A DNA stretch of 64,000 bases, from the IMG/VR virus record IMGVR_UViG_3300045988_051379, positions 18,279-82,278 of that record. The stretch is one strand, 5' to 3'. How positions within the stretch are numbered: position 1 is the first letter of the stretch; each line of letters starts with the position of its first letter. This document shows positions 3,258 through 37,835 of this stretch, piece by piece. The notes below the pieces were generated by a model that was not told the DNA's origin, searched no databases, and worked only from the letters and a program-made list of their open reading frames with translations. This DNA comes from a virus. A program made the position numbers and the translations under genes.

Positions 3258-3625
3258 CTATGAAATTTAAGTACGACAAATCTAAAGGATTGCTATTCTT
3301 TATCAATCCGTTACTTCCGGTAAAAGGATATTCATTTATGAATATTTGTGCTATTATGTTTACTAGAAGTGAGGATTATATAAAGAGAATGACTCAAGCT
3401 ACAGTTACACATGAGAAGACTCACACAAAACAGATATTAGAAATGGGAATAGTATTCTTCTATTTATGGTATGTAATAGAGTGGTTTATTAAATTACTAG
3501 CTAGTGGCAATGCTCACACTGCCTATAGAAACATATCATTTGAAAGGGAAGCTAGGTATGTAGCTGAACATCCTGAATACGAGAGGAAGACTTTCAGCTA
3601 TGGCTGGTTTAAATGGATATTATGA
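3245..3625 (+). CDS. membrane protein with HExxH motif (possible metallopeptidase-like)
   Basis: HEKTH motif followed by hydrophobic helices; weak. Confidence 0.25.
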   Translation: MEALTMKFKYDKSKGLLFFINPLLPVKGYSFMNICAIMFTRSEDYIKRMTQATVTHEKTHTKQILEMGIVFFYLWYVIEWFIKLLASGNAHTAYRNISFEREARYVAEHPEYERKTFSYGWFKWIL

Positions 3626-8122: not shown

Positions 8123-8760
8123 TGAGTAAAATAGCAACAGAATTAGAAGCTAAGACTATGGGGGGAGGGACTCTCTCGGTAATTGATAATAAGTGCTGTA
8201 CTAAAGCTAGAGCACTTGAATTAGGATGTCAGATTAAAAGTGGATTTAGTTATACTGATAATCAGTTAGTGGAGTTAGAAGGTATAAAGGCTGCTCCAAA
8301 TGTAATCCTTCATTATGGTTGGAAGGATATGCCAATTAATAATATACAGAAATTTAGAGTACGTTTCTCATTTGTTAATGAGAGTTCAGTGAATGGAGAG
8401 CCATTTAAGTATTCTGACAATACTATGTACTTTACAATTACTCCAAGATTAGAGCAAGGAGAACAAACGTACACTAAGACTTTAGCAAATCCTCTTAAAT
8501 ATTACTTAGAGAAATTAGCACCTTCTAACCAAGACCCATATAATACACCTGTTTGGATACGTTTTGAGGGATACATGATACTTAGGCAAGTGCCTAAAAT
8601 TACATTAGCAGTAGATTCTCAATCTGAGAATTGGGCAGAAGGAGTAACATTCCCTTCATCTGGAAGGTGGGTCGAAATGAATAATTCTGGTAGAGTATTT
8701 AGATTTACTGGTGGGGAAATAGACCTAAACATAGAACTGTATACAGCGTCAGCGCAATGA
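8123..8760 (+). CDS. hypothetical protein (track start 8047 overlaps the upstream gene; Met at 8123 more likely)
   Basis: ORF in track; no motif. Confidence 0.35.
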
Positions 8761-8954
8761 TTAAAGTAACTGATAATAAAGAAATAAAAGAGACAGTCTT
8801 AGCAGGACTTAAAAGGAATAAAGAGAAGTATGGTAAGAAGTACTGCCCATGCTCCTTAGTAAGAGATGAAAATACAGTATGTATGTGTAAAGAGTTTAGG
8901 GAAATGGAAGAAGGGACTTGCCATTGCCAACTTTATGTTAAAACTAAAGACTAA
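8757..8954 (+). CDS. ferredoxin-thioredoxin reductase catalytic-subunit-like small Cys protein
   Basis: CPC-x11-CMC-x13-CHC spacing resembles the FTR beta-chain CPC...CPC...CHC arrangement. Confidence 0.4.
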   Translation: MIKVTDNKEIKETVLAGLKRNKEKYGKKYCPCSLVRDENTVCMCKEFREMEEGTCHCQLYVKTKD

Positions 8955-10098: not shown

Positions 10099-10425
10099 AT
10101 GTGTAACCTTACTGGTAAATCTTTACAAGATAATGTTCTAGGATATATAGAAGATATTATTTTGAATATAAAAGACCATTATGAAACATTTGCTGTTATT
10201 CCTAGAGGTAAATCTAAATTACAAGTTTATATGACAATAAGCAATGGAACAAATGGAGCTGAAGGATGTATTATTAATTCTATGGAAGATGTTCTAAATG
10301 TGCTTAAAAACTTAAGGAAATATAAAGGAGTAAATTGGTCACAGCTACTGGAAGTTGGGATAGATAATGCAGATGATTTATATTGGTGGTACGTGACATT
10401 CTCTATAGACACTACAGCTATATAA
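10099..10425 (+). CDS. hypothetical protein
   Basis: ORF in track; no motif. Confidence 0.3.
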   Translation: MCNLTGKSLQDNVLGYIEDIILNIKDHYETFAVIPRGKSKLQVYMTISNGTNGAEGCIINSMEDVLNVLKNLRKYKGVNWSQLLEVGIDNADDLYWWYVTFSIDTTAI

Positions 10426-10556
10426 TAAAATTGATACCAGCCAGTAGATGCTAGGCACAAAGCCTAAGATAGTTTTTACATCTTCGTCTTGGTGGTCTAC
10501 GCCAGTGTGCTCTGACGTATTCCCACTTACCGAGACGGAATCTTATTATAAACAAC

Positions 10557-15279: not shown

Positions 15280-15561
15280 GTGTACATAGTTATGGGCAAA
15301 TACGATGATTATCGCAGAGTTGACAATAGATATACCACAGCTATAGGAATGAGCTCGTGGAGATTCTTTAATGTTGGTAAATATAAGAATCAGAAAGTGA
15401 AAGACGTCTGTTACTTCAATCCATTCTATGTAGCATGGTGTCTAGAGAACTGGCAAGGATTCAGTCTTACTAGCTACGAACGTATCAAAGGATTAGAACG
15501 TCAGTTAGAGAAAGACCCTGAACTCATCTTAAAGGTGAGTAAATGTAAAACTATTGCGTGA
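15280..15561 (+). CDS. hypothetical protein
   Basis: ORF in track. Confidence 0.3.
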   Translation: MYIVMGKYDDYRRVDNRYTTAIGMSSWRFFNVGKYKNQKVKDVCYFNPFYVAWCLENWQGFSLTSYERIKGLERQLEKDPELILKVSKCKTIA

Positions 15562-15900
15562 TTACTTTCGTAGGAATAATATAATCTACCACCATAATGG
15601 GTACGCCCGGAGACTAATGCAGAGCATCTCTTATACCAAACAGTATCTTCCTTTAATACTGGAGAGATGTCTTATCGTGAGATAAGGCAAAGGAGTGTGG
15701 CACAGGAAGGTGGATTCCTTTACTTGTAATAATATTTTTGTTCGTTTTATTACAGCATATCCTCCCGTGACGGGAGTGGCATCATGACTAAGCCTTTACG
15801 TGGCGATGCTATAAGTAAGTCAATAGACTGAAACTAATTAGTTCTTTATTAACGTTTCACTAAAACCTCGTGAGTGTATAGGTAACTCATTAGATTAATT

Positions 15901-16707
15901 ATGAAGACATTAAAATCATCTCTCAAGTTCAGTGTAGTAGAAATCACACCGAAAGATGCAGAAGTACTATTGTCAAAGTATTTGCACAATCGGCCTATTT
16001 CTAGAGACAATATCAACAAGTATGCTATTCAAATGTCTGAAGGTAAATGGCATTTGAACGGTGAGGCAATCATTATAAATGATAAAGGTCTTACTGATAA
16101 CGGCTATCATCGTCTAGCAGCGTGCATACAGGCAGGTGTTCCATTTCAAACTGTGCTCATAGAAGGTGTTAAACACGAAACTTGGACTACCATAGATACT
16201 GGTAAAACAAGAAGTGCAGGTGATGTGTTTGGAATCATGGGCATTACTAATCCTACCCAGAAAGCTTCCATTGTGGCTAAATATTACGCTTTGACCAAGG
16301 GCTTGAAAGGTTTGGCTGATGCTGGCGCTCTTCACAGACTTAGAGGGACTGGTCTGACTCGTCAAGATTTGTTGAACATGTACAGAAAGTATGAAACTAC
16401 CTTTGATGAGGTTACAGGACTTGCACTCAAGTACAAGAAGTACACTAAAGGATTACTCCATGCATCTATGATTGGTGGTGTAACAGCTTATCTTGTTCTT
16501 GATAAGAAGCATAAATTAGATACTCTTGACGACTTCTGGAACAAAGTATCTACAAGCACACTTCCGTTGTATACGAGTGGTCGTAATCGTTTGCTGTCTG
16601 TGCGTGGTCAGGACAAACAAAAGGTTGTGACTGACCTGTGGAATAAATATATCTCTTCTAAAGAGAACATCCGCGTTAATATCACGTCTGCAATAATCTT
16701 TAAGTAA
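15901..16707 (+). CDS. ParB-like nuclease domain protein
   Basis: INDKGLTDNGYHRLAACIQAG matches the ParB/Srx DG-HR motif region. Confidence 0.45.
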   Translation: MKTLKSSLKFSVVEITPKDAEVLLSKYLHNRPISRDNINKYAIQMSEGKWHLNGEAIIINDKGLTDNGYHRLAACIQAGVPFQTVLIEGVKHETWTTIDTGKTRSAGDVFGIMGITNPTQKASIVAKYYALTKGLKGLADAGALHRLRGTGLTRQDLLNMYRKYETTFDEVTGLALKYKKYTKGLLHASMIGGVTAYLVLDKKHKLDTLDDFWNKVSTSTLPLYTSGRNRLLSVRGQDKQKVVTDLWNKYISSKENIRVNITSAIIFK

Positions 16708-16746
16708 CCAAAGGAGTGTGAGATTTCCATATTTTAAAACCTGGCA

Positions 16747-17286
16747 GTGAGTAGGTTAACTGCCAACTTATCTATGACTAATGAATTAGCAGAGGAATAC
16801 AGAGAGCTTAAACGTAACTTAATACCCATATTGTTACAGACATGTGGTAAAGAGCGTTTATGTGATGCTGTAGACAAATGGTTATTAGTAAAATCCGGTA
16901 TCAAAGTAATATCTAAATCATGGTATGAAGGTGGATTGCCTGGTAAAGAGTATGTGGTAATTAAGGATACTTCAGTACTTGCTAGCTATCCCTCTAAAGG
17001 TGCTAATTATGAACATCGTCTTGCGAGGTATAGAGCCTACACTAAGGCATTTAACCATGTAAGAGAAGAAGGAATACCTTTGGCTCCTATACAGGTTGAT
17101 AAATTTACCAAAGTACTTGTCAATGGAGTAACACTATGCCTTATCGGAACTTTTGAAGGTAAATCAGAGAATGACTTTATCAAAGAGATATCTGGTAAGG
17201 TTTACGTAAAGGCAGGTACTGATTCGGTAGATGTTATTAATCTACAAACTAGAAGAACTAAAAGATATAAAGTTCAGTACACATGA
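16747..17286 (+). CDS. hypothetical protein
   Basis: ORF in track. Confidence 0.35.
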   Translation: MSRLTANLSMTNELAEEYRELKRNLIPILLQTCGKERLCDAVDKWLLVKSGIKVISKSWYEGGLPGKEYVVIKDTSVLASYPSKGANYEHRLARYRAYTKAFNHVREEGIPLAPIQVDKFTKVLVNGVTLCLIGTFEGKSENDFIKEISGKVYVKAGTDSVDVINLQTRRTKRYKVQYT

Positions 17287-17627
17287 AACTATACTTTAAC
17301 TATACACAGAACTTCATCCTTGCAGATTGTGAGGGTGAGGTTATTGATATGAGAACTGGTCAGCCCTCTGATGCCAAACTACAATCTCGCCTTAATAGCT
17401 ACAAAGATGAAACTACATCTAAGTGGATTCCTATTAAGGACTTGGGAGATTTGTATGATATGTCAGATAGTGATGTAACAGTTTCTGGTAGCTTAATTAC
17501 AATGTCCATTGACGGACATAAGGTTACAGCTAGACATAAGGTGTCAGCAGGAGTCAATTATGTACAACTGACTGGACACTTCCCTCGCTACTTCTGGAAA
17601 GGATTTGCTAACTTATTAACTAAGTAA
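17283..17627 (+). CDS. hypothetical protein
   Basis: ORF in track; ATGA start-stop overlap with upstream gene. Confidence 0.35.
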   Translation: MKLYFNYTQNFILADCEGEVIDMRTGQPSDAKLQSRLNSYKDETTSKWIPIKDLGDLYDMSDSDVTVSGSLITMSIDGHKVTARHKVSAGVNYVQLTGHFPRYFWKGFANLLTK

Positions 17628-17629
17628 CA

Positions 17630-17863
17630 ATGTTATCGCAGATACAGTTTAGGAAACAGAGAATACCATGTACTCTCAATCATCAATCTATTACTTCTCG
17701 TGAAGGTAAATTGCTTCTTGGGTTTGGAACTAACCAGCCCATGATGCAGCAAGCCGAAAGACAAATCGCCAAATATCAAGTTCCCTATGAGACATCTGAT
17801 TTAAATGGCATGCTTTCAGTTATTATTGATTATTCTATTATTAGCAGTGTAACAACAATCTAA
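17630..17863 (+). CDS. hypothetical protein
   Basis: ORF in track. Confidence 0.3.
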   Translation: MLSQIQFRKQRIPCTLNHQSITSREGKLLLGFGTNQPMMQQAERQIAKYQVPYETSDLNGMLSVIIDYSIISSVTTI

Positions 17864-17873
17864 CCTTTAAACA

Positions 17874-18116
17874 ATGGATATAAAGAACAGCCCTATAGTT
17901 AAACATGCAATTAACAATGACAAATCTCTTCTTCCCGGAATCATCGCTTACAGCTGCAAAGAAGCTATGGTAATGGCTAAGAGAGAATGCGGTGATTTTA
18001 TAGACTTCGCCAAGGAGTGGATACAGTCCTCCAAACAGCTTTGCGAAGAAGAGAACATTCCATGGGAACAGATTAGGGCAGCAACTGGAGATTCTATTGA
18101 TAATTATATGTCATAA
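17874..18116 (+). CDS. hypothetical protein
   Basis: ORF in track. Confidence 0.35.
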   Translation: MDIKNSPIVKHAINNDKSLLPGIIAYSCKEAMVMAKRECGDFIDFAKEWIQSSKQLCEEENIPWEQIRAATGDSIDNYMS

Positions 18117-18130
18117 TCTCCTTTCCGTCT

Positions 18131-18210
18131 AAAAGAGAGTCTGATGAGTCGTTGAAAATTACGACGAAACTTCACTATGATTTGGCACGTCACGGTGGAG
18201 TCACTCTTAA
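18131..18210 (+). ncRNA. type I hammerhead ribozyme
   Basis: CUGAUGA core (18141..18147). Helix II GTCG/CGAC with a 10-nt loop. GAAAC follows at 18166..18170. Helix III is 7 bp (ACTTCAC / GTGGAGT). GUC cleavage triplet sits at 18200..18202. Helix I pairs AGAGAGT (18134..18140) with ACTCTT (18203..18208). Confidence 0.55.
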
Positions 18211-18225
18211 CCAATATTAGTAATT

Positions 18226-18387
18226 ATGAAACTCACTAAGAATAAAAAAGACAATATAATAATTAGTTCTGCTATTGGAGCATTAGTAATTATTAATATC
18301 ATGTTACCCACAGCTGGCGATTTTACATATGTAGTCGGAGCTATAGGTATTGTTGCGGCCATAGGAGTCTGGTTCTTACCAGATTAA
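18226..18387 (+). CDS. small two-TM membrane peptide
   Basis: 53-aa ORF below the track threshold, two hydrophobic helices. Confidence 0.3.
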   Translation: MKLTKNKKDNIIISSAIGALVIINIMLPTAGDFTYVVGAIGIVAAIGVWFLPD

Positions 18388-18428
18388 TCAAATAATTAAT
18401 AAATCAAACTCTTTAAATTTAGAAGGAA

Positions 18429-19040
18429 ATGAAGAAATTACAAGAACGCCTGAAAGCTGGTATTGATTTCAATCCAAAGAAAGACCCATGCTATGATTCT
18501 ATCGTAGAAGAAGCTGAAACTATTCTTGGGCATGTGCTCGATGCCGCTGAAGGCAAAGAAGTTCCTTACAAGAACTTCACTGTTGGTGGCGGTTATGACG
18601 AAAGGAAAGACCGTGAAATCGTCATTGTTCGTGGTGACGGTGAAGACTTGCTCGTTATGGAAGTTAAAGACGAATCTATTCGTGTTCAACCTCATGAACG
18701 TCATGCTGTCACTCTGAATGAGGATGACGAAGCTTCTGCCCGTGAAATCTTTGACATTCTTATGAAAATGAGAGACCAAAGACAAGGCTCTACATTTAAA
18801 GTCGAAGAAGGCAAAAAAGCTTTGTTTGAGTTTCTGAAGGATATATCTAAGGCTATCGGTGCTGATGTTGAAGGTGTTGAAACGCCAGAAGAGCTATTAA
18901 AAGTTCTCAAGGCTAGAGAAGAAGGCATAGAAGATTTGATGCGTGAACAACGCATTCATCTTACTATGCACATGCTTGACTGTTCCCGTGAGAAGGCAGA
19001 GAAGATTGTAAAGAACTTTGAAGAAGCTGTGAAGCGTTAA
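18429..19040 (+). CDS. acidic hypothetical protein with GC-shifted codon usage
   Basis: 203 aa, E/D-rich; visibly more G/C at third positions than neighbours. Confidence 0.45.
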   Translation: MKKLQERLKAGIDFNPKKDPCYDSIVEEAETILGHVLDAAEGKEVPYKNFTVGGGYDERKDREIVIVRGDGEDLLVMEVKDESIRVQPHERHAVTLNEDDEASAREIFDILMKMRDQRQGSTFKVEEGKKALFEFLKDISKAIGADVEGVETPEELLKVLKAREEGIEDLMREQRIHLTMHMLDCSREKAEKIVKNFEEAVKR

Positions 19041-19049
19041 TAATGCCAA

Positions 19050-19121
19050 GAGAGGATTAGTTTAATGGTAGAAGGCTAGTTGCGAACTGGCGGAGGGAGT
19101 TCGAATCTCCCATCCTCTCCA
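19050..19121 (+). tRNA. tRNA (anticodon probably GCG, Arg; D-arm atypical)
   Basis: Acceptor GAGAGGA/TCCTCTC, T-arm GGGAG-TTCGAAT-CTCCC, anticodon stem GCTAG/CTGGC with loop TTGCGAA; the D-stem does not pair canonically. Confidence 0.45.
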
Positions 19122-19202
19122 ATCATCTTAAAGTTTTGTTTTATATTTTGAATTTGCCCAGTCATGTTGTGAAACACACTTGGGCTTTTAATTAATAAGT
19201 GT

Positions 19203-19556
19203 ATGAATCAGAATGCAGTTAATTCTTTAAGGAATGCCAAGAGGCATATTCTTATTAGCGATGTTGATAAGTTCAATAGCCATTTATTGTATTACATATT
19301 AAATGTTATATATGGAACACATGACCATATTAAATTAAATACGATACGTGAAAGACTTGAACGTGAGCTTAAATGGTCATTGGACGAGCATATTCCTGAT
19401 AAGGATGTAATTAGAGAATGGCTTGACAATGATTACCCTCTTATATGCATAACAGAGTTATCGTTTGACAGTTGTATTAAACTTGCCAACGATTTCCCAG
19501 ATTATGAAATTGTAGTTTATAGTTGGATGAAACATGAAGGGAACTTACCATTTTAA
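19203..19556 (+). CDS. hypothetical protein
   Basis: ORF in track. Confidence 0.35.
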   Translation: MNQNAVNSLRNAKRHILISDVDKFNSHLLYYILNVIYGTHDHIKLNTIRERLERELKWSLDEHIPDKDVIREWLDNDYPLICITELSFDSCIKLANDFPDYEIVVYSWMKHEGNLPF

Positions 19557-19692: not shown

Positions 19693-20248
19693 GGGCCTAG
19701 ATTTGGTTTTGACAGGCGATTACAAGTTAGTAAGACGTGTAGAGTTCGTACCAACTCTTTAATAATGATACAGCAATTTAAGTGGAAACACTGAAGTAAG
19801 AATGGCAGCCTAAGCTGCTGGCTTATCTATTAATTTAGCTCTAAGTCGGGTTAATTGGAGAGACCTAGAAACAGAAGAGGTGTGGGAAGAAGCGTATAGA
19901 GCAGCCCACTTAACTTGAAAGCCAAAGGTTAGTAAAGCTGAAATCTCCACTACCTATCTATGGGTTACAAATAGAAACGTTCTCCAACGTAAATGGAGTG
20001 GTGGAGGAGCGACTTCGGTCAGCCCAGGTTTGGAAGCGTCAGCTTCTGAACCTTTAAGTTTGGTAGTTTGTAAATTAGCTTTTGGTGTACTGGTTTGGCT
20101 ATTGCAGCCTAATTACCTGGTTCCAAGATAAGACTAGTAAAACTACCTACATGCTGAACTCAACAGCTGATGTAATAAAATAGAGACACACGTAATCTTA
20201 TTAATGAGGGTTGTTTGGACGGCGGTTCGACTCCGCCTAGGTCCACTA
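19693..20248 (+). ncRNA. ssrA: tmRNA (ssrA-like), about 550 nt
   Basis: 5' end GGGCCTAGATTTGGTTTTGACAGGCG matches the tmRNA 5' consensus GGGGcuGAUUcuGGaUUCGACgGG. 3' end GGACGGCGGTTCGACTCCGCC-TAGGTCC-A matches the E. coli ssrA 3' tRNA-like half. The acceptor pairs GGGCCTA/TAGGTCC. The region has no ORF of 60 aa or more with a Met start. A candidate tag ORF ends ...EVRMAA-stop at 19811..19813. Confidence 0.6.
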
Positions 20249-21749: not shown

Positions 21750-22129
21750 ATCCACTATTGACGAATGGTGGTAGCAAAACTTGGTCTGAAGAACCAATAG
21801 ACATATTCCGGAGTATGTCTATGACTTAAAGGCTATATCAAAGAGTTGAAACCTGTATCTATTCGAACAGTAGGAGTTCACCTGATTAAGCATCAGGAAA
21901 CAGTAGTGCAAATCTACTATAGATATTGTGTATAAGAGAGAATCTACACGGTCTGTATTATATAATCAGCATACAGATAGGTCACCAAGCAAACCTCTTT
22001 CCTGCCTGGTCAAGTGTGCATTACGGTCTGTAAGTGGCGAGCGGGTTAACGTATGTCCGATTGCCGTAATGCCGCTTGTTTATTGTTTAGAATAAAGAAA
22101 GACTCTCATAACAATAAATTTAACAAGAG

Positions 22130-26125: not shown

Positions 26126-26197
26126 GCCCCATTACTTCAGTGGTAGAAGAGCAAATTCTAAACTTGTATGGCGTTGGTTCGAGTCCAACATGGGGCA
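26126..26197 (+). tRNA. suppressor tRNA-Sup (CTA, amber)
   Basis: Canonical 72-nt cloverleaf: acceptor GCCCCAT/ATGGGGC, D-arm CTTC-AGTGGTA-GAAG, anticodon loop TTCTAAA (anticodon CTA at 26158..26160), T-arm GTTGG-TTCGAGT-CCAAC. Confidence 0.6.
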
Positions 26198-26200
26198 CTT

Positions 26201-26289
26201 GCGGGCGAGTGGAACGGATATACAAACCATCCTGGTCTCATAAGCCACGGGATAGCGGGTTCGACTCCCGCGCTCCGCAACTACAATCA
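26201..26289 (+). tRNA. tRNA-like element (possible CAT anticodon), non-canonical, maybe pseudogene
   Basis: Good T-arm GCGGG-TTCGACT-CCCGC; acceptor only 5/7 paired; candidate anticodon arm TGGT-CTCATAA-GCCA; D region too long. Confidence 0.3.
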
Positions 26290-26381
26290 TTGTACATACT
26301 ACATTTTCAGAATGTTAAGAAGACAAACAGCAATTTCCTGTATGTTGGCATAAGTAAATGAATCTATTGTCTTCTGATGAT

Positions 26382-26455
26382 GGGTGTATAACTCAGGTGG
26401 TAGAGTAACACGCTGATAACGTGTAAGTCCTTGGTTCACCCACAATACAACAATT
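26382..26455 (+). tRNA. tRNA-Ile (GAT), aberrant T-arm
   Basis: D-arm ACTC-AGGTGGTA-GAGT and anticodon arm ACACG-CTGATAA-CGTGT are canonical; T-stem and acceptor 3' strand pair poorly. Confidence 0.45.
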
Positions 26456-33079: not shown

Positions 33080-33167
33080 GGAGAGTTGGGTGAGTGGCTT
33101 AAACCAGTCCCCTGCTAAGGGACCGAACCTCAAAAGGGTTCCGCTGGTTCGAATCCAGCACTCTCCG
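33080..33167 (+). tRNA. tRNA-Ser (GCT), type II
   Basis: Anticodon arm GTCCC-CTGCTAA-GGGAC, long variable arm with GAACC/GGTTC stem, T-arm GCTGG-TTCGAAT-CCAGC. Confidence 0.8.
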
Positions 33168-33219
33168 CGCTGGCTAATAAGAGTTTGCGAAAATCATTAA
33201 TAACCTAATTATTAGAATT

Positions 33220-36767: not shown

Positions 36768-37835
36768 ATGATTAGTATTGTATTAGGAACATTCTTTGGA
36801 GACGAAGGTAAGGGACAGACAGTTCACAACTTATGTAACAAGTACATAGGTAAGCGAGAGTCTGTATTAGTAGTCAGGTTTAGTGGTGGACATCAAGTAG
36901 GACATACTGTAAAGCATGGAGACATGATGCACACCTTTAGTAACTTTGGCAGCGGAACCTTACTTGGAGTGCCGACGTATTGGTCCGAATACTGTACTGT
37001 AGACCCAATTACCTCTATGTTAGAGGGTGCAGACTTAGCTAAAATGGGAGTTCATCCCATTGTTCAGTATCACCCTCACTGCCAAGTTGTAATTCCCTTC
37101 GATGTCTATTCCCAAGTTAATAATGAAGAGAACTTACGACATGGTACTGTAGGTACAGGGTTTAAAGCTTGTTTGGACCGAGTTAAGGCAGGATACAGCT
37201 TAACAGTTGTAGATTGTATGAATCCTTACATACTACGTGAGAAATTAAATGCCATAGTGGATAACTATTACAACATGTCTAGTAAATATCCCTCGATAGA
37301 CCTAGACAACTGGTGTAGGTTAGCACATGCTTATTTCTTACATACAGGTACGGTTAATGAAGATTGCTTGTTAAACTATGACAACCTAGTGTTTGAAGGT
37401 TCACAGGGAATATTGCTTGACCAAAGATTCGGCATAATGCCTTATTGCACTCCGTCTAATACAACTTCACAAAACGCTTACGAGCTGTTGCGGAAAGCAG
37501 GCATACGTAAAGAAATCCAAACTTGTTATGTAACTCGTCCTTATATAACAAGGCATGGTAACGGCCCATTTCCTTCTGGAATGTCTGTTAGGGATGTCGA
37601 TGACCCTAATAATAAGTTCAACGATTTCCAGAAGACGCTTAGGGCTATTGATTTCGACAAAGACCTATTCGCACACAGTGTACGCATTAACCGTTCATTT
37701 AAAGTTCCTTATAGGAATGAACGAACGGAGAAATTGTACGTATCACATTGGGATGAAGCATCTGACGCAGAGCAAGAAATGCTAGCGAATTTATGGATGT
37801 CAATACAACCCATGATATTCGATAAGTTAGTTTAG
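36768..37835 (+). CDS. adenylosuccinate synthetase (PurA)-like enzyme, C-terminally short; candidate PurZ (2-aminoadenine pathway)
   Basis: GDEGKGQ P-loop, RFSGGHQVGHT, FEGSQGILLDQRFGIMPYCTPSNTT and HGNGPFP match the PurA motifs GDEGKGK / GGHNAGHT / FEGAQGTLLD-TYPYVTSSNTT / GAGPFP. Only 355 aa versus ~430 for cellular PurA. Confidence 0.55.
   Translation: MISIVLGTFFGDEGKGQTVHNLCNKYIGKRESVLVVRFSGGHQVGHTVKHGDMMHTFSNFGSGTLLGVPTYWSEYCTVDPITSMLEGADLAKMGVHPIVQYHPHCQVVIPFDVYSQVNNEENLRHGTVGTGFKACLDRVKAGYSLTVVDCMNPYILREKLNAIVDNYYNMSSKYPSIDLDNWCRLAHAYFLHTGTVNEDCLLNYDNLVFEGSQGILLDQRFGIMPYCTPSNTTSQNAYELLRKAGIRKEIQTCYVTRPYITRHGNGPFPSGMSVRDVDDPNNKFNDFQKTLRAIDFDKDLFAHSVRINRSFKVPYRNERTEKLYVSHWDEASDAEQEMLANLWMSIQPMIFDKLV

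Follow-up and report, generated by a model that had tools for sequence, protein, structure and literature searches.

A conserved type I hammerhead ribozyme that may separate two gene blocks in a tRNA-rich gut jumbo phage

Genomic Context of the Locus

The DNA analyzed here is a 64,000-nt stretch (hereafter, the window) of an uncultured human-gut jumbo phage, whose contigs reach up to 337 kb and which carries about 28 tRNAs, a tmRNA, and a suppressor tRNA. All genes between 15901 and a point past 23800 are on the + strand, with gaps of 2 to 41 nt between them and larger ones around the tmRNA and RAGATH-34 genes. The first sizeable gap in this + strand string is 109 nt long, lies between two co-directional small genes, and is occupied by a ribozyme motif. 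The upstream gene (17874–18116, +) is the last of a tightly packed co-directional string; it encodes 80 aa without a family match, and its stop lies 18 nt before helix I of the motif. An 82-aa homologue takes the same position in L052, a divergent relative described below. The downstream gene (18226–18387, +) encodes 53 aa with two hydrophobic segments, would be the first cistron of the predicted 3′ product, and shares 38% identity with a 55-aa ORF of L052 (E = 4e-5). It is followed by ORF203, and a tRNA-Arg (19051) begins 10 nt past the ORF203 stop.

The proteins neighboring the ribozyme had no Pfam matches, and PHROGs returned only families of unknown function. A terminator scan of 15500–19233 found no terminator-like site on the + strand, and a promoter search near the ribozyme yielded nothing convincing. 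Since the genes are tightly packed and no terminator was matched, co-transcription of the flanking ORFs is the simplest reading.

Architecture of the Hammerhead

A complete type I hammerhead is found at 18135–18208 (+), with all invariant core nucleotides, three helices, and a GUC cleavage site. From 18130 to 18209 (+), its 5′ half reads UAAAA-GAGAGU-CUGAUGA-GUCGU(UGAAAAUU)ACGAC-GAA-ACUUCACU-A-UGAU(UUGGCAC)GUCA, and the 3′ half continues after GUCA as C-GGUGGAGU-C-ACUCUU-A. The A-rich tail UAAAA (18130–18134, +) adjoins helix I and ends in an AA dinucleotide, 18133–18134, that is conserved in the wider family. Helix I pairs GAGAGU (18135–18140, +; positions 2.6–2.1) with ACUCUU (18203–18208, +; positions 1.1–1.6), the latter being the predicted 5′-OH end of the downstream RNA. 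It comprises 6 bp including a terminal G.U, leaves A18134 unpaired, and is seen in the motif, in the predicted fold, and in the orthologues.

The catalytic core C3-U4-G5-A6-U7-G8-A9 (CUGAUGA; 18141–18147, +) and the second core segment G12-A13-A14 (GAA; 18166–18168, +) are both invariant in all orthologues. Between them lies the helix II hairpin (18148–18165, +), in which GUCGU (18148–18152) and ACGAC (18161–18165) form 5 bp with the closing pair G10.1-C11.1, capped by the 8-nt loop II UGAAAAUU (18153–18160, +). The helix III hairpin (18169–18201, +), supported by the fold and by orthologue substitutions, opens with the pairs A15.1-U16.1 and C15.2-G16.2. It is built of 8 bp (ACUUCACU/GGUGGAGU), a 1x1 A/C mismatch, 4 bp (UGAU/GUCA), and a 7-nt loop. 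A15.1 is 18169, and the cleavage triplet G16.2-U16.1-C17 is the GUC at 18200–18202, so that C17 is C18202 (+) in hammerhead numbering and the predicted scissile bond is C18202/A18203.

The standard pairs that flank the core are present: G18148-C18165 (10.1-11.1), U18140-A18203 (1.1-2.1), and A18169-U18201 (15.1-16.1). The topology is that of type I, with an open helix I, loop-capped helices II and III, and the body 5′ of the cleavage site. The site also has every nucleotide by which bacterial and phage hammerheads were previously accepted (C3 U4 G5 A6 N7 G8 A9, G12 A13 A14, A15.1-U16.1, and H17; PMC3088659). An earlier sequence-only reading of this DNA had named the same elements (CUGAUGA, helices I to III, GAA, and GUC), and all of them are where it placed them, with some helix boundaries to be redrawn. 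Helix II, which it gave as 4 bp with a 10-nt loop, has 5 bp and the 8-nt loop. Its helix III is present and longer than the 7 bp proposed, with 8 bp, the mismatch, and 4 bp more; its helix I, AGAGAGU/ACUCUU, is likewise present, with a paired stretch of 6 bp that excludes A18134.

The predicted cleavage site lies 23 nt before the ATG of the 53-aa ORF. The remainder of this leader (18209–18225, +) is AU-rich and predicted to be unstructured after cleavage, and the leader fold of the 3′ product has a minimum free energy (MFE) of only −2.2 kcal/mol (z = +0.85). We also considered a 5′-terminal hairpin on the 3′ product; several members of the wider family have one (e.g. L028), and we rejected it for this locus, as the leaders of the window and of L052 are unstructured.

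Folding and Descriptor Searches

When 18125–18215 was folded without constraints, both the MFE structure and the centroid were exactly the hammerhead three-way junction, at −21.9 kcal/mol. The folding z-score of this region as a whole was unremarkable (−1.19), which is no surprise in a small junction dependent on tertiary contacts. In a 231-nt context, helices II and III were kept and helix I was absent from both the MFE structure and the centroid.

A permissive type I descriptor (4 bp or more in helix I and 3 or more in each of helices II and III), run over both strands of the 64-kb window, returned a single match, the 18135–18208 site. In 300 dinucleotide shuffles, the same descriptor gave a mean of 0.19 matches per window, and none was of equal quality (helix I of at least 6 bp, II of at least 5, and III of at least 8, with G10.1-C11.1 and A15.1-U16.1). 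No further credible hammerhead emerged in the window with descriptors for types II and III. One type II match, at 26310–26380, was dropped: its position 15.1 is not A, and its helix I has just 3 bp.

Conservation among Relatives

Using the flanking proteins, we retrieved related loci from 17 IMG/VR and 46 metagenome contigs. Where a source is named, the latter come from the human gut; the largest measures 337 kb. A search of GenBank phages (50,697 records; megablast and blastn) returned neither a homologous region nor the hammerhead module, and a search for deeper relatives with two protein alignments returned only the same two clades, that of the window and that of L052.

All related contigs that span the position (approximately 53 loci, representing 16 sequence variants) retain the hammerhead in the same intergenic gap. 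Among these orthologues, helix I, the core, helix II, and GAA are free of changes; all changes lie in the distal part of helix III and its loop. The helix III stems carry five substitutions, each of which preserves or creates a pair: A18177G turns the A/C mismatch into G-C, while G18194A gives U-A, A18199G gives U.G, U18181C gives C-G, and C18191U gives G.U. Three further changes lie in the helix III loop. RNAalifold, applied to the orthologue variants, predicted the hammerhead structure unaided.

The divergent clade consists of L052 and four metagenome contigs and is syntenic with the window. Its gene order is ORF134, ORF81, ORF82, hammerhead, 55-aa membrane ORF, 213-aa ORF, and tRNA-Arg. Between L052 and the window, neighboring genes share 53–73% DNA identity, the leader shares approximately 48%, and the downstream proteins of 213 and 203 aa are 33% identical. 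Across the same distance, 18135–18176 is identical at 42 of 42 nt, and so is all of GUGGAGUCACUCUU in the 3′ strands of helices III and I. The distal stem of helix III is compensated, with UGAU/GUCA in the window and UACU/AGUG in L052. Since the functional parts are 100% identical although the flanks are only 53–73% so, and since the distal stem covaries, the sequence comparison points to purifying selection on precisely the parts that a hammerhead requires.

Covariance Models

Rfam scans of the whole window, run both at gathering thresholds and in E-value mode, found no hammerhead family at threshold and no other ribozyme class. In E-value mode, RF00008 aligned to the site at 22.5 bits (gathering threshold 48.5) with a wrongly permuted alignment. 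The RAGATH-1 hammerhead model, RF03152, scored 20.7 bits (gathering threshold 56.3) and gave a full-length, correct type I alignment. The sequence-only reading had held that a covariance-model score below threshold would count against the ribozyme. Such a score was indeed obtained, but the same thresholds fail to recognize other type I hammerheads of the family. We scanned eleven loci from the wider family with Rfam 15, nine of type I and two of type III (L021 and L027). None of the nine type I loci (L028, L034, L046, L136, L018, L042, L053, L025, and L052) produced a hammerhead match at gathering score, nor did the type III locus L027; L021, a type III hammerhead that shares the core and helix II, exceeded the RF00008 threshold with 52.6 bits. 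Because Rfam misses all nine type I siblings and yet detects L021, its score does not discriminate here and is not a valid ground for refutation. The subthreshold result reflects model coverage rather than the window sequence.

A covariance model of our own, R1, built from four unrelated siblings, found the window site as its only match (E = 1e-11). Helix III is approximately twice the model length here, and R1 misaligns the 3′ half of the site; therefore, this match supports the sequence module and not the full structure.

The Wider Family of Siblings

The module CUGAUGA-GUCGU-N4-12-ACGAC-GAAAC occurs at 37 IMG/VR loci. Each of the 29 distinct module sequences can be parsed into a complete hammerhead that has a GUC site, some being of type I and others of type III, while shuffled flanks permit such a parse in 1.1% of cases. 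Helices I and III of these siblings are unrelated in sequence. A full-length MAFFT alignment was dropped, as the variable 3′ halves were misaligned, and we used a core-anchored pseudo-sequence alignment of 13 distinct members, with helix registers fitted by our own parser. With these fitted registers, 96% of cells were paired, and there were 53 double-sided changes compared with 16 expected, a count reached in none of 500 shuffles (again with parser-fitted registers). As a control, sliding the partners by one to three columns reduced pairing to 21–59%.

With a relaxed helix II stem, the loop UGAAAAUU is found in more than 119 IMG/VR contigs. Among the matches listed, 120 of 124 distinct copies parse as hammerheads: 11 belong to type III and 109 to type I, and in 106 of the latter, helices I and III each have 4 bp or more. 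C17 is present in 106 of the 120, and the seven helix II stem variants are all fully paired. The distinct type I copies among those listed (n = 71) share further features: helix I has 5–6 bp in 68, AA lies 5′ of helix I in 67–69, and A lies 3′ of helix I in 52. The window copy matches its siblings in helix I length, 5′ AA, and 3′ A, and its helix III span of 33 nt falls at the long end of the family, for which the mode is 14–22 nt. The AA at 18133–18134 is the presumed docking partner of loop II, judging from this conservation; hammerheads require a tertiary contact of helix I with loop II to cleave fast at physiological Mg2+. By inspection, no pseudoknot between loop II and the flanks is conserved in the UGAAAAUU class; such pairings are present in L029 and L041, which have different loops. 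The UGAAAAUU/AA-tail subclass is abundant in viromes and has no blastn match in GenBank phages (50,697 records).

The ORFs flanking sibling hammerheads are small (median about 80 aa) and mutually unrelated, with 44 clusters among 58 downstream ORFs. Helix I begins a median of 2 nt after the upstream stop, and the following ATG lies a median of 36 nt past the cleavage site; the window locus is typical of this intercistronic layout. About half of the type I siblings have their upstream stop within 0–2 nt of helix I, and in L136 (2566–2569) the upstream gene ends with the very UGA that belongs to CUGAUGA. The UAA/AA kept 5′ of helix I may thus double as a stop signal and as part of a tertiary contact.

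Several siblings have other self-cleaving or structured RNAs close by. In L028, an unrelated viral contig, the hammerhead (core 2732–2761) lies between two twister-P5 ribozymes (2300–2362 and 3306–3384), making three self-cleaving ribozymes among small ORFs, with twister-P5 spacings of about 400–550 nt. Tandem sibling hammerheads approximately 390 nt apart occur in L018 (12991 and 13380), L154 (423 and 810), L166, L188, and L153; these pairs bracket single small ORFs (67–97 aa), as in the clustered arrangement in prophages. Other RNAs near sibling hammerheads include twister-P5, RAGATH-4, RAGATH-14, and RAGATH-36, and the surroundings of the window hammerhead are likewise typical of RAGATH RNAs.

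Other RNA and Protein Features of the Window

A RAGATH-34 RNA lies 3.5 kb downstream of the hammerhead (21752–21859, +; 118 bits against a gathering threshold of 60.7), and L052 has one in the syntenic place (10331–10435; 70 bits). The tmRNA of the window (19693–20248, +) is unusually long at about 556 nt; Rfam scores it at 84 bits, and ARAGORN did not call it in the window. L052 has its tmRNA at 8282–8798.

A suppressor tRNA with anticodon CUA (26126–26198, +; labeled “Pyl” by ARAGORN) heads the tRNA array and suggests TAG recoding in part of the phage genes. CUA suppressors are also found in the sibling-hammerhead jumbo-phage loci L136, L139, L142, L145, L167, L171, L174, and L182, and the sibling locus L177 has a UUA suppressor tRNA. 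Located 2 nt past the suppressor, a tRNA-like sequence (26199–26284, +) folds into a cloverleaf with a CAU anticodon loop and a canonical T arm (GCGGG-UUCGACU-CCCGC) and was called by neither ARAGORN nor Rfam. A second tRNA-like sequence of 61 nt (26382–26442, +) scores 40 bits with Rfam and was missed by ARAGORN. ARAGORN also called two overlapping tRNAs on opposite strands, Ser-GCU (33080–33168, +) and Arg-UCG (33107–33183, −), the former scoring 53.8 bits in Rfam, in E-value mode only. Between tRNA genes, a 355-aa protein (36768–37835, +) is an adenylosuccinate synthetase homologue (Pfam PF00709, E = 8.5e-35); its size and phage context make it a candidate for a PurZ-type enzyme, as in genomes with 2-aminoadenine (Z-base).

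Proposed Mechanism and Alternatives

Taken on sequence evidence, the element at 18135–18208 is probably a functional self-cleaving hammerhead. The identity given by the sequence-only reading, a type I hammerhead upstream of a membrane ORF, is borne out by conservation, covariation, and family membership. We consider it probable that this is a selectively maintained type I hammerhead whose co-transcriptional, intercistronic cleavage uncouples two gene blocks, though we hold the downstream consequences of cleavage with lower confidence than the identity of the hammerhead.

As a rightward polycistronic transcript emerges, hairpins II and III would form, and helix I would close once 18203–18208 had been transcribed. 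Loop II UGAAAAUU would then dock at the A-rich terminus of helix I, which has 6 bp, a contact that we infer from the family, and the 2′-OH of C18202 would attack its own 3′ phosphate, as predicted for a hammerhead. The upstream mRNA, carrying the ORF string to 18116, would end in the folded ribozyme body with a 2′,3′-cyclic phosphate, while the downstream RNA (ORF53, ORF203, tRNA-Arg, and beyond) would begin with a 5′-OH and the 23-nt unstructured leader. It follows from type I topology that the ribozyme body would stay on the upstream fragment and that the downstream RNA would keep six ribozyme nucleotides. The outcome would be physical uncoupling of the two gene blocks, and uncoupling of their stability and translation is probable.

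A broader version of this reading joins the hammerhead to the tRNA genes of the phage. Hammerheads with the UGAAAAUU loop and AA tail could be a distinct tertiary-contact subclass specific to gut phages that, jointly with tRNA processing sites, divides very long early transcripts into defined units in stop-codon-recoding, tRNA-rich jumbo phages, an idea that we regard as doubtful. In the window, the hammerhead cut and RNase P action at tRNA-Arg would delimit one such unit, ORF53-ORF203; we think this rather unlikely as well.

It is improbable that the hammerhead is dedicated to the stable RNAs downstream (tRNA-Arg at 19051 and the tmRNA at 19693), giving their precursor its 5′ end ahead of maturation by RNase P and RNase Z. 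The sequence-only reading had proposed such a role near stable-RNA genes, and the order of hammerhead, small ORF, approximately 200-aa ORF, and tRNA-Arg is indeed kept in both clades. Also in keeping with it, tRNAs occur in 29 of the 81 sibling loci scanned, and in one lineage of jumbo phages that have a tRNA array and suppressor tRNAs, the sibling hammerhead lies about 2 kb from the array. However, the other 52 loci have no tRNA, the tRNA-rich cases represent few lineages, and the immediate neighbors across the family are the small, unrelated, non-conserved ORFs noted above. The nearest tRNA in the window is about 850 nt and two ORFs downstream, there is one hammerhead for about 28 tRNAs, and RNase P and RNase Z make tRNA ends unaided. 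These observations do not favor the earlier proposal.

A conditional ribozyme, gated by ribosomes on the upstream ORF or by alternative pairing of helix I so as to tune the ratio of uncut to cut transcript, is in our judgment quite unlikely. Such gating would fit a helix I of just 6 bp that is lost from the MFE structure and centroid in wider context, and it would fit the siblings, in which stop codons abut or overlap helix I or the core (median gap 2 nt; the UGA of L136) and a ribosome terminating there would unfold the ribozyme. In the window, by contrast, 18 nt separate the stop from helix I, a distance at or beyond the limit of a ribosome footprint, and the element has no aptamer-like extra domain. 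The conserved loop II and AA tail instead suggest a fast, constitutive fold.

Catalysis is predicted, and the site could instead be a conserved RNA or DNA element that resembles a hammerhead without cleaving, such as a 3′-end stabilizer, a protein-binding site, or a promoter. Sigma-70-like hexamers (TTGAAA, 18 nt, TATGAT) do lie inside the ribozyme at 18152–18181. We rejected this promoter: its −10-like hexamer is TGTGAT in most close relatives and different again in L052, and promoter-like matches in the window are no commoner than in shuffles (13 compared with 15.6). Conservation tracks RNA pairing and the exact catalytic nucleotides, for whose invariance there would otherwise be no reason, and we consider a non-cleaving element very unlikely.

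A chance occurrence of a low-information motif, to which the 0.19 loose matches per shuffled window and the subthreshold Rfam scores might point, is excluded, since the site is the sole descriptor match in the window, none of the 300 shuffles is of equal quality, and the orthologous position is conserved, with covarying helices and functional parts 100% conserved against flanks about 55% identical.

Comparison with Known Hammerheads

Compared with the type I hammerheads of bacteria and phages (Perreault et al. 2011, PMC3088659; PMC6155905), the window element has an identical core, the same junction, and an open helix I. Like those in PMC3088659, it is intergenic in a phage and co-oriented with small non-conserved ORFs, and it has a RAGATH-type RNA nearby (RAGATH-34, 3.5 kb downstream here). 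It differs from them in being a single copy rather than clustered, in residing in a tRNA-rich jumbo phage, in its unusually long helix III (33 nt), and in belonging to a subclass with loop II UGAAAAUU, a helix I of 5–6 bp, and a 5′ AA tail. We did not find an explicit description of this subclass in the phage hammerhead literature (PMC3088659, PMC6155905).

The core consensus is shared with RF00163 and RF00008 (Hammerhead_1 and Hammerhead_3), although the window site reaches only 22.5 bits, with RF00008. RF03152 (RAGATH-1) resembles the site in having an A-rich stretch 5′ of a short helix I (UAUAAAAU in the model and UCUAAAAG in the window), whereas the minimal helix II and the extra upstream hairpin of the model are absent from the window site.

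A further parallel concerns HHphage of halovirus HF1/HF2, which lies upstream of a helicase gene (PMC3088659). Both ribozymes are located just upstream of a start codon, at 13 nt for HHphage and 23 nt for the window, and cleavage would create an mRNA 5′ end in either system. In halovirus HF2, a mapped 5′ end coincides with the hammerhead cleavage site (PMC3088659). HHphage has a variant core, suited to high salt, and a mapped transcript 5′ end, whereas the window element has a canonical core and a predicted cleavage site.

Implications for Phage Hammerheads

Hammerheads are persistently associated with phages (PMC3088659, PMC6155905), those in prophages, which are arranged as in the window, have been shown both in vitro and in vivo to cut polycistronic RNAs (PMC3088659), and the biological role of phage hammerheads is still open (PMC6155905). 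The view taken in the sequence-only reading, that they are rare in phages, does not hold: more than 119 IMG/VR contigs carry the UGAAAAUU variant alone. The present find is therefore a correct but fairly ordinary one; phage hammerheads are common, and current understanding is unchanged by it. The locus itself is a clean single-copy case, with a conserved set of orthologues, an 18-nt gap from stop codon to ribozyme, and a 23-nt leader. For the family, the Rfam type I model systematically misses an abundant phage hammerhead subclass, that with the UGAAAAUU loop and AA tail, and ribozyme censuses of viromes are therefore likely to be undercounts.
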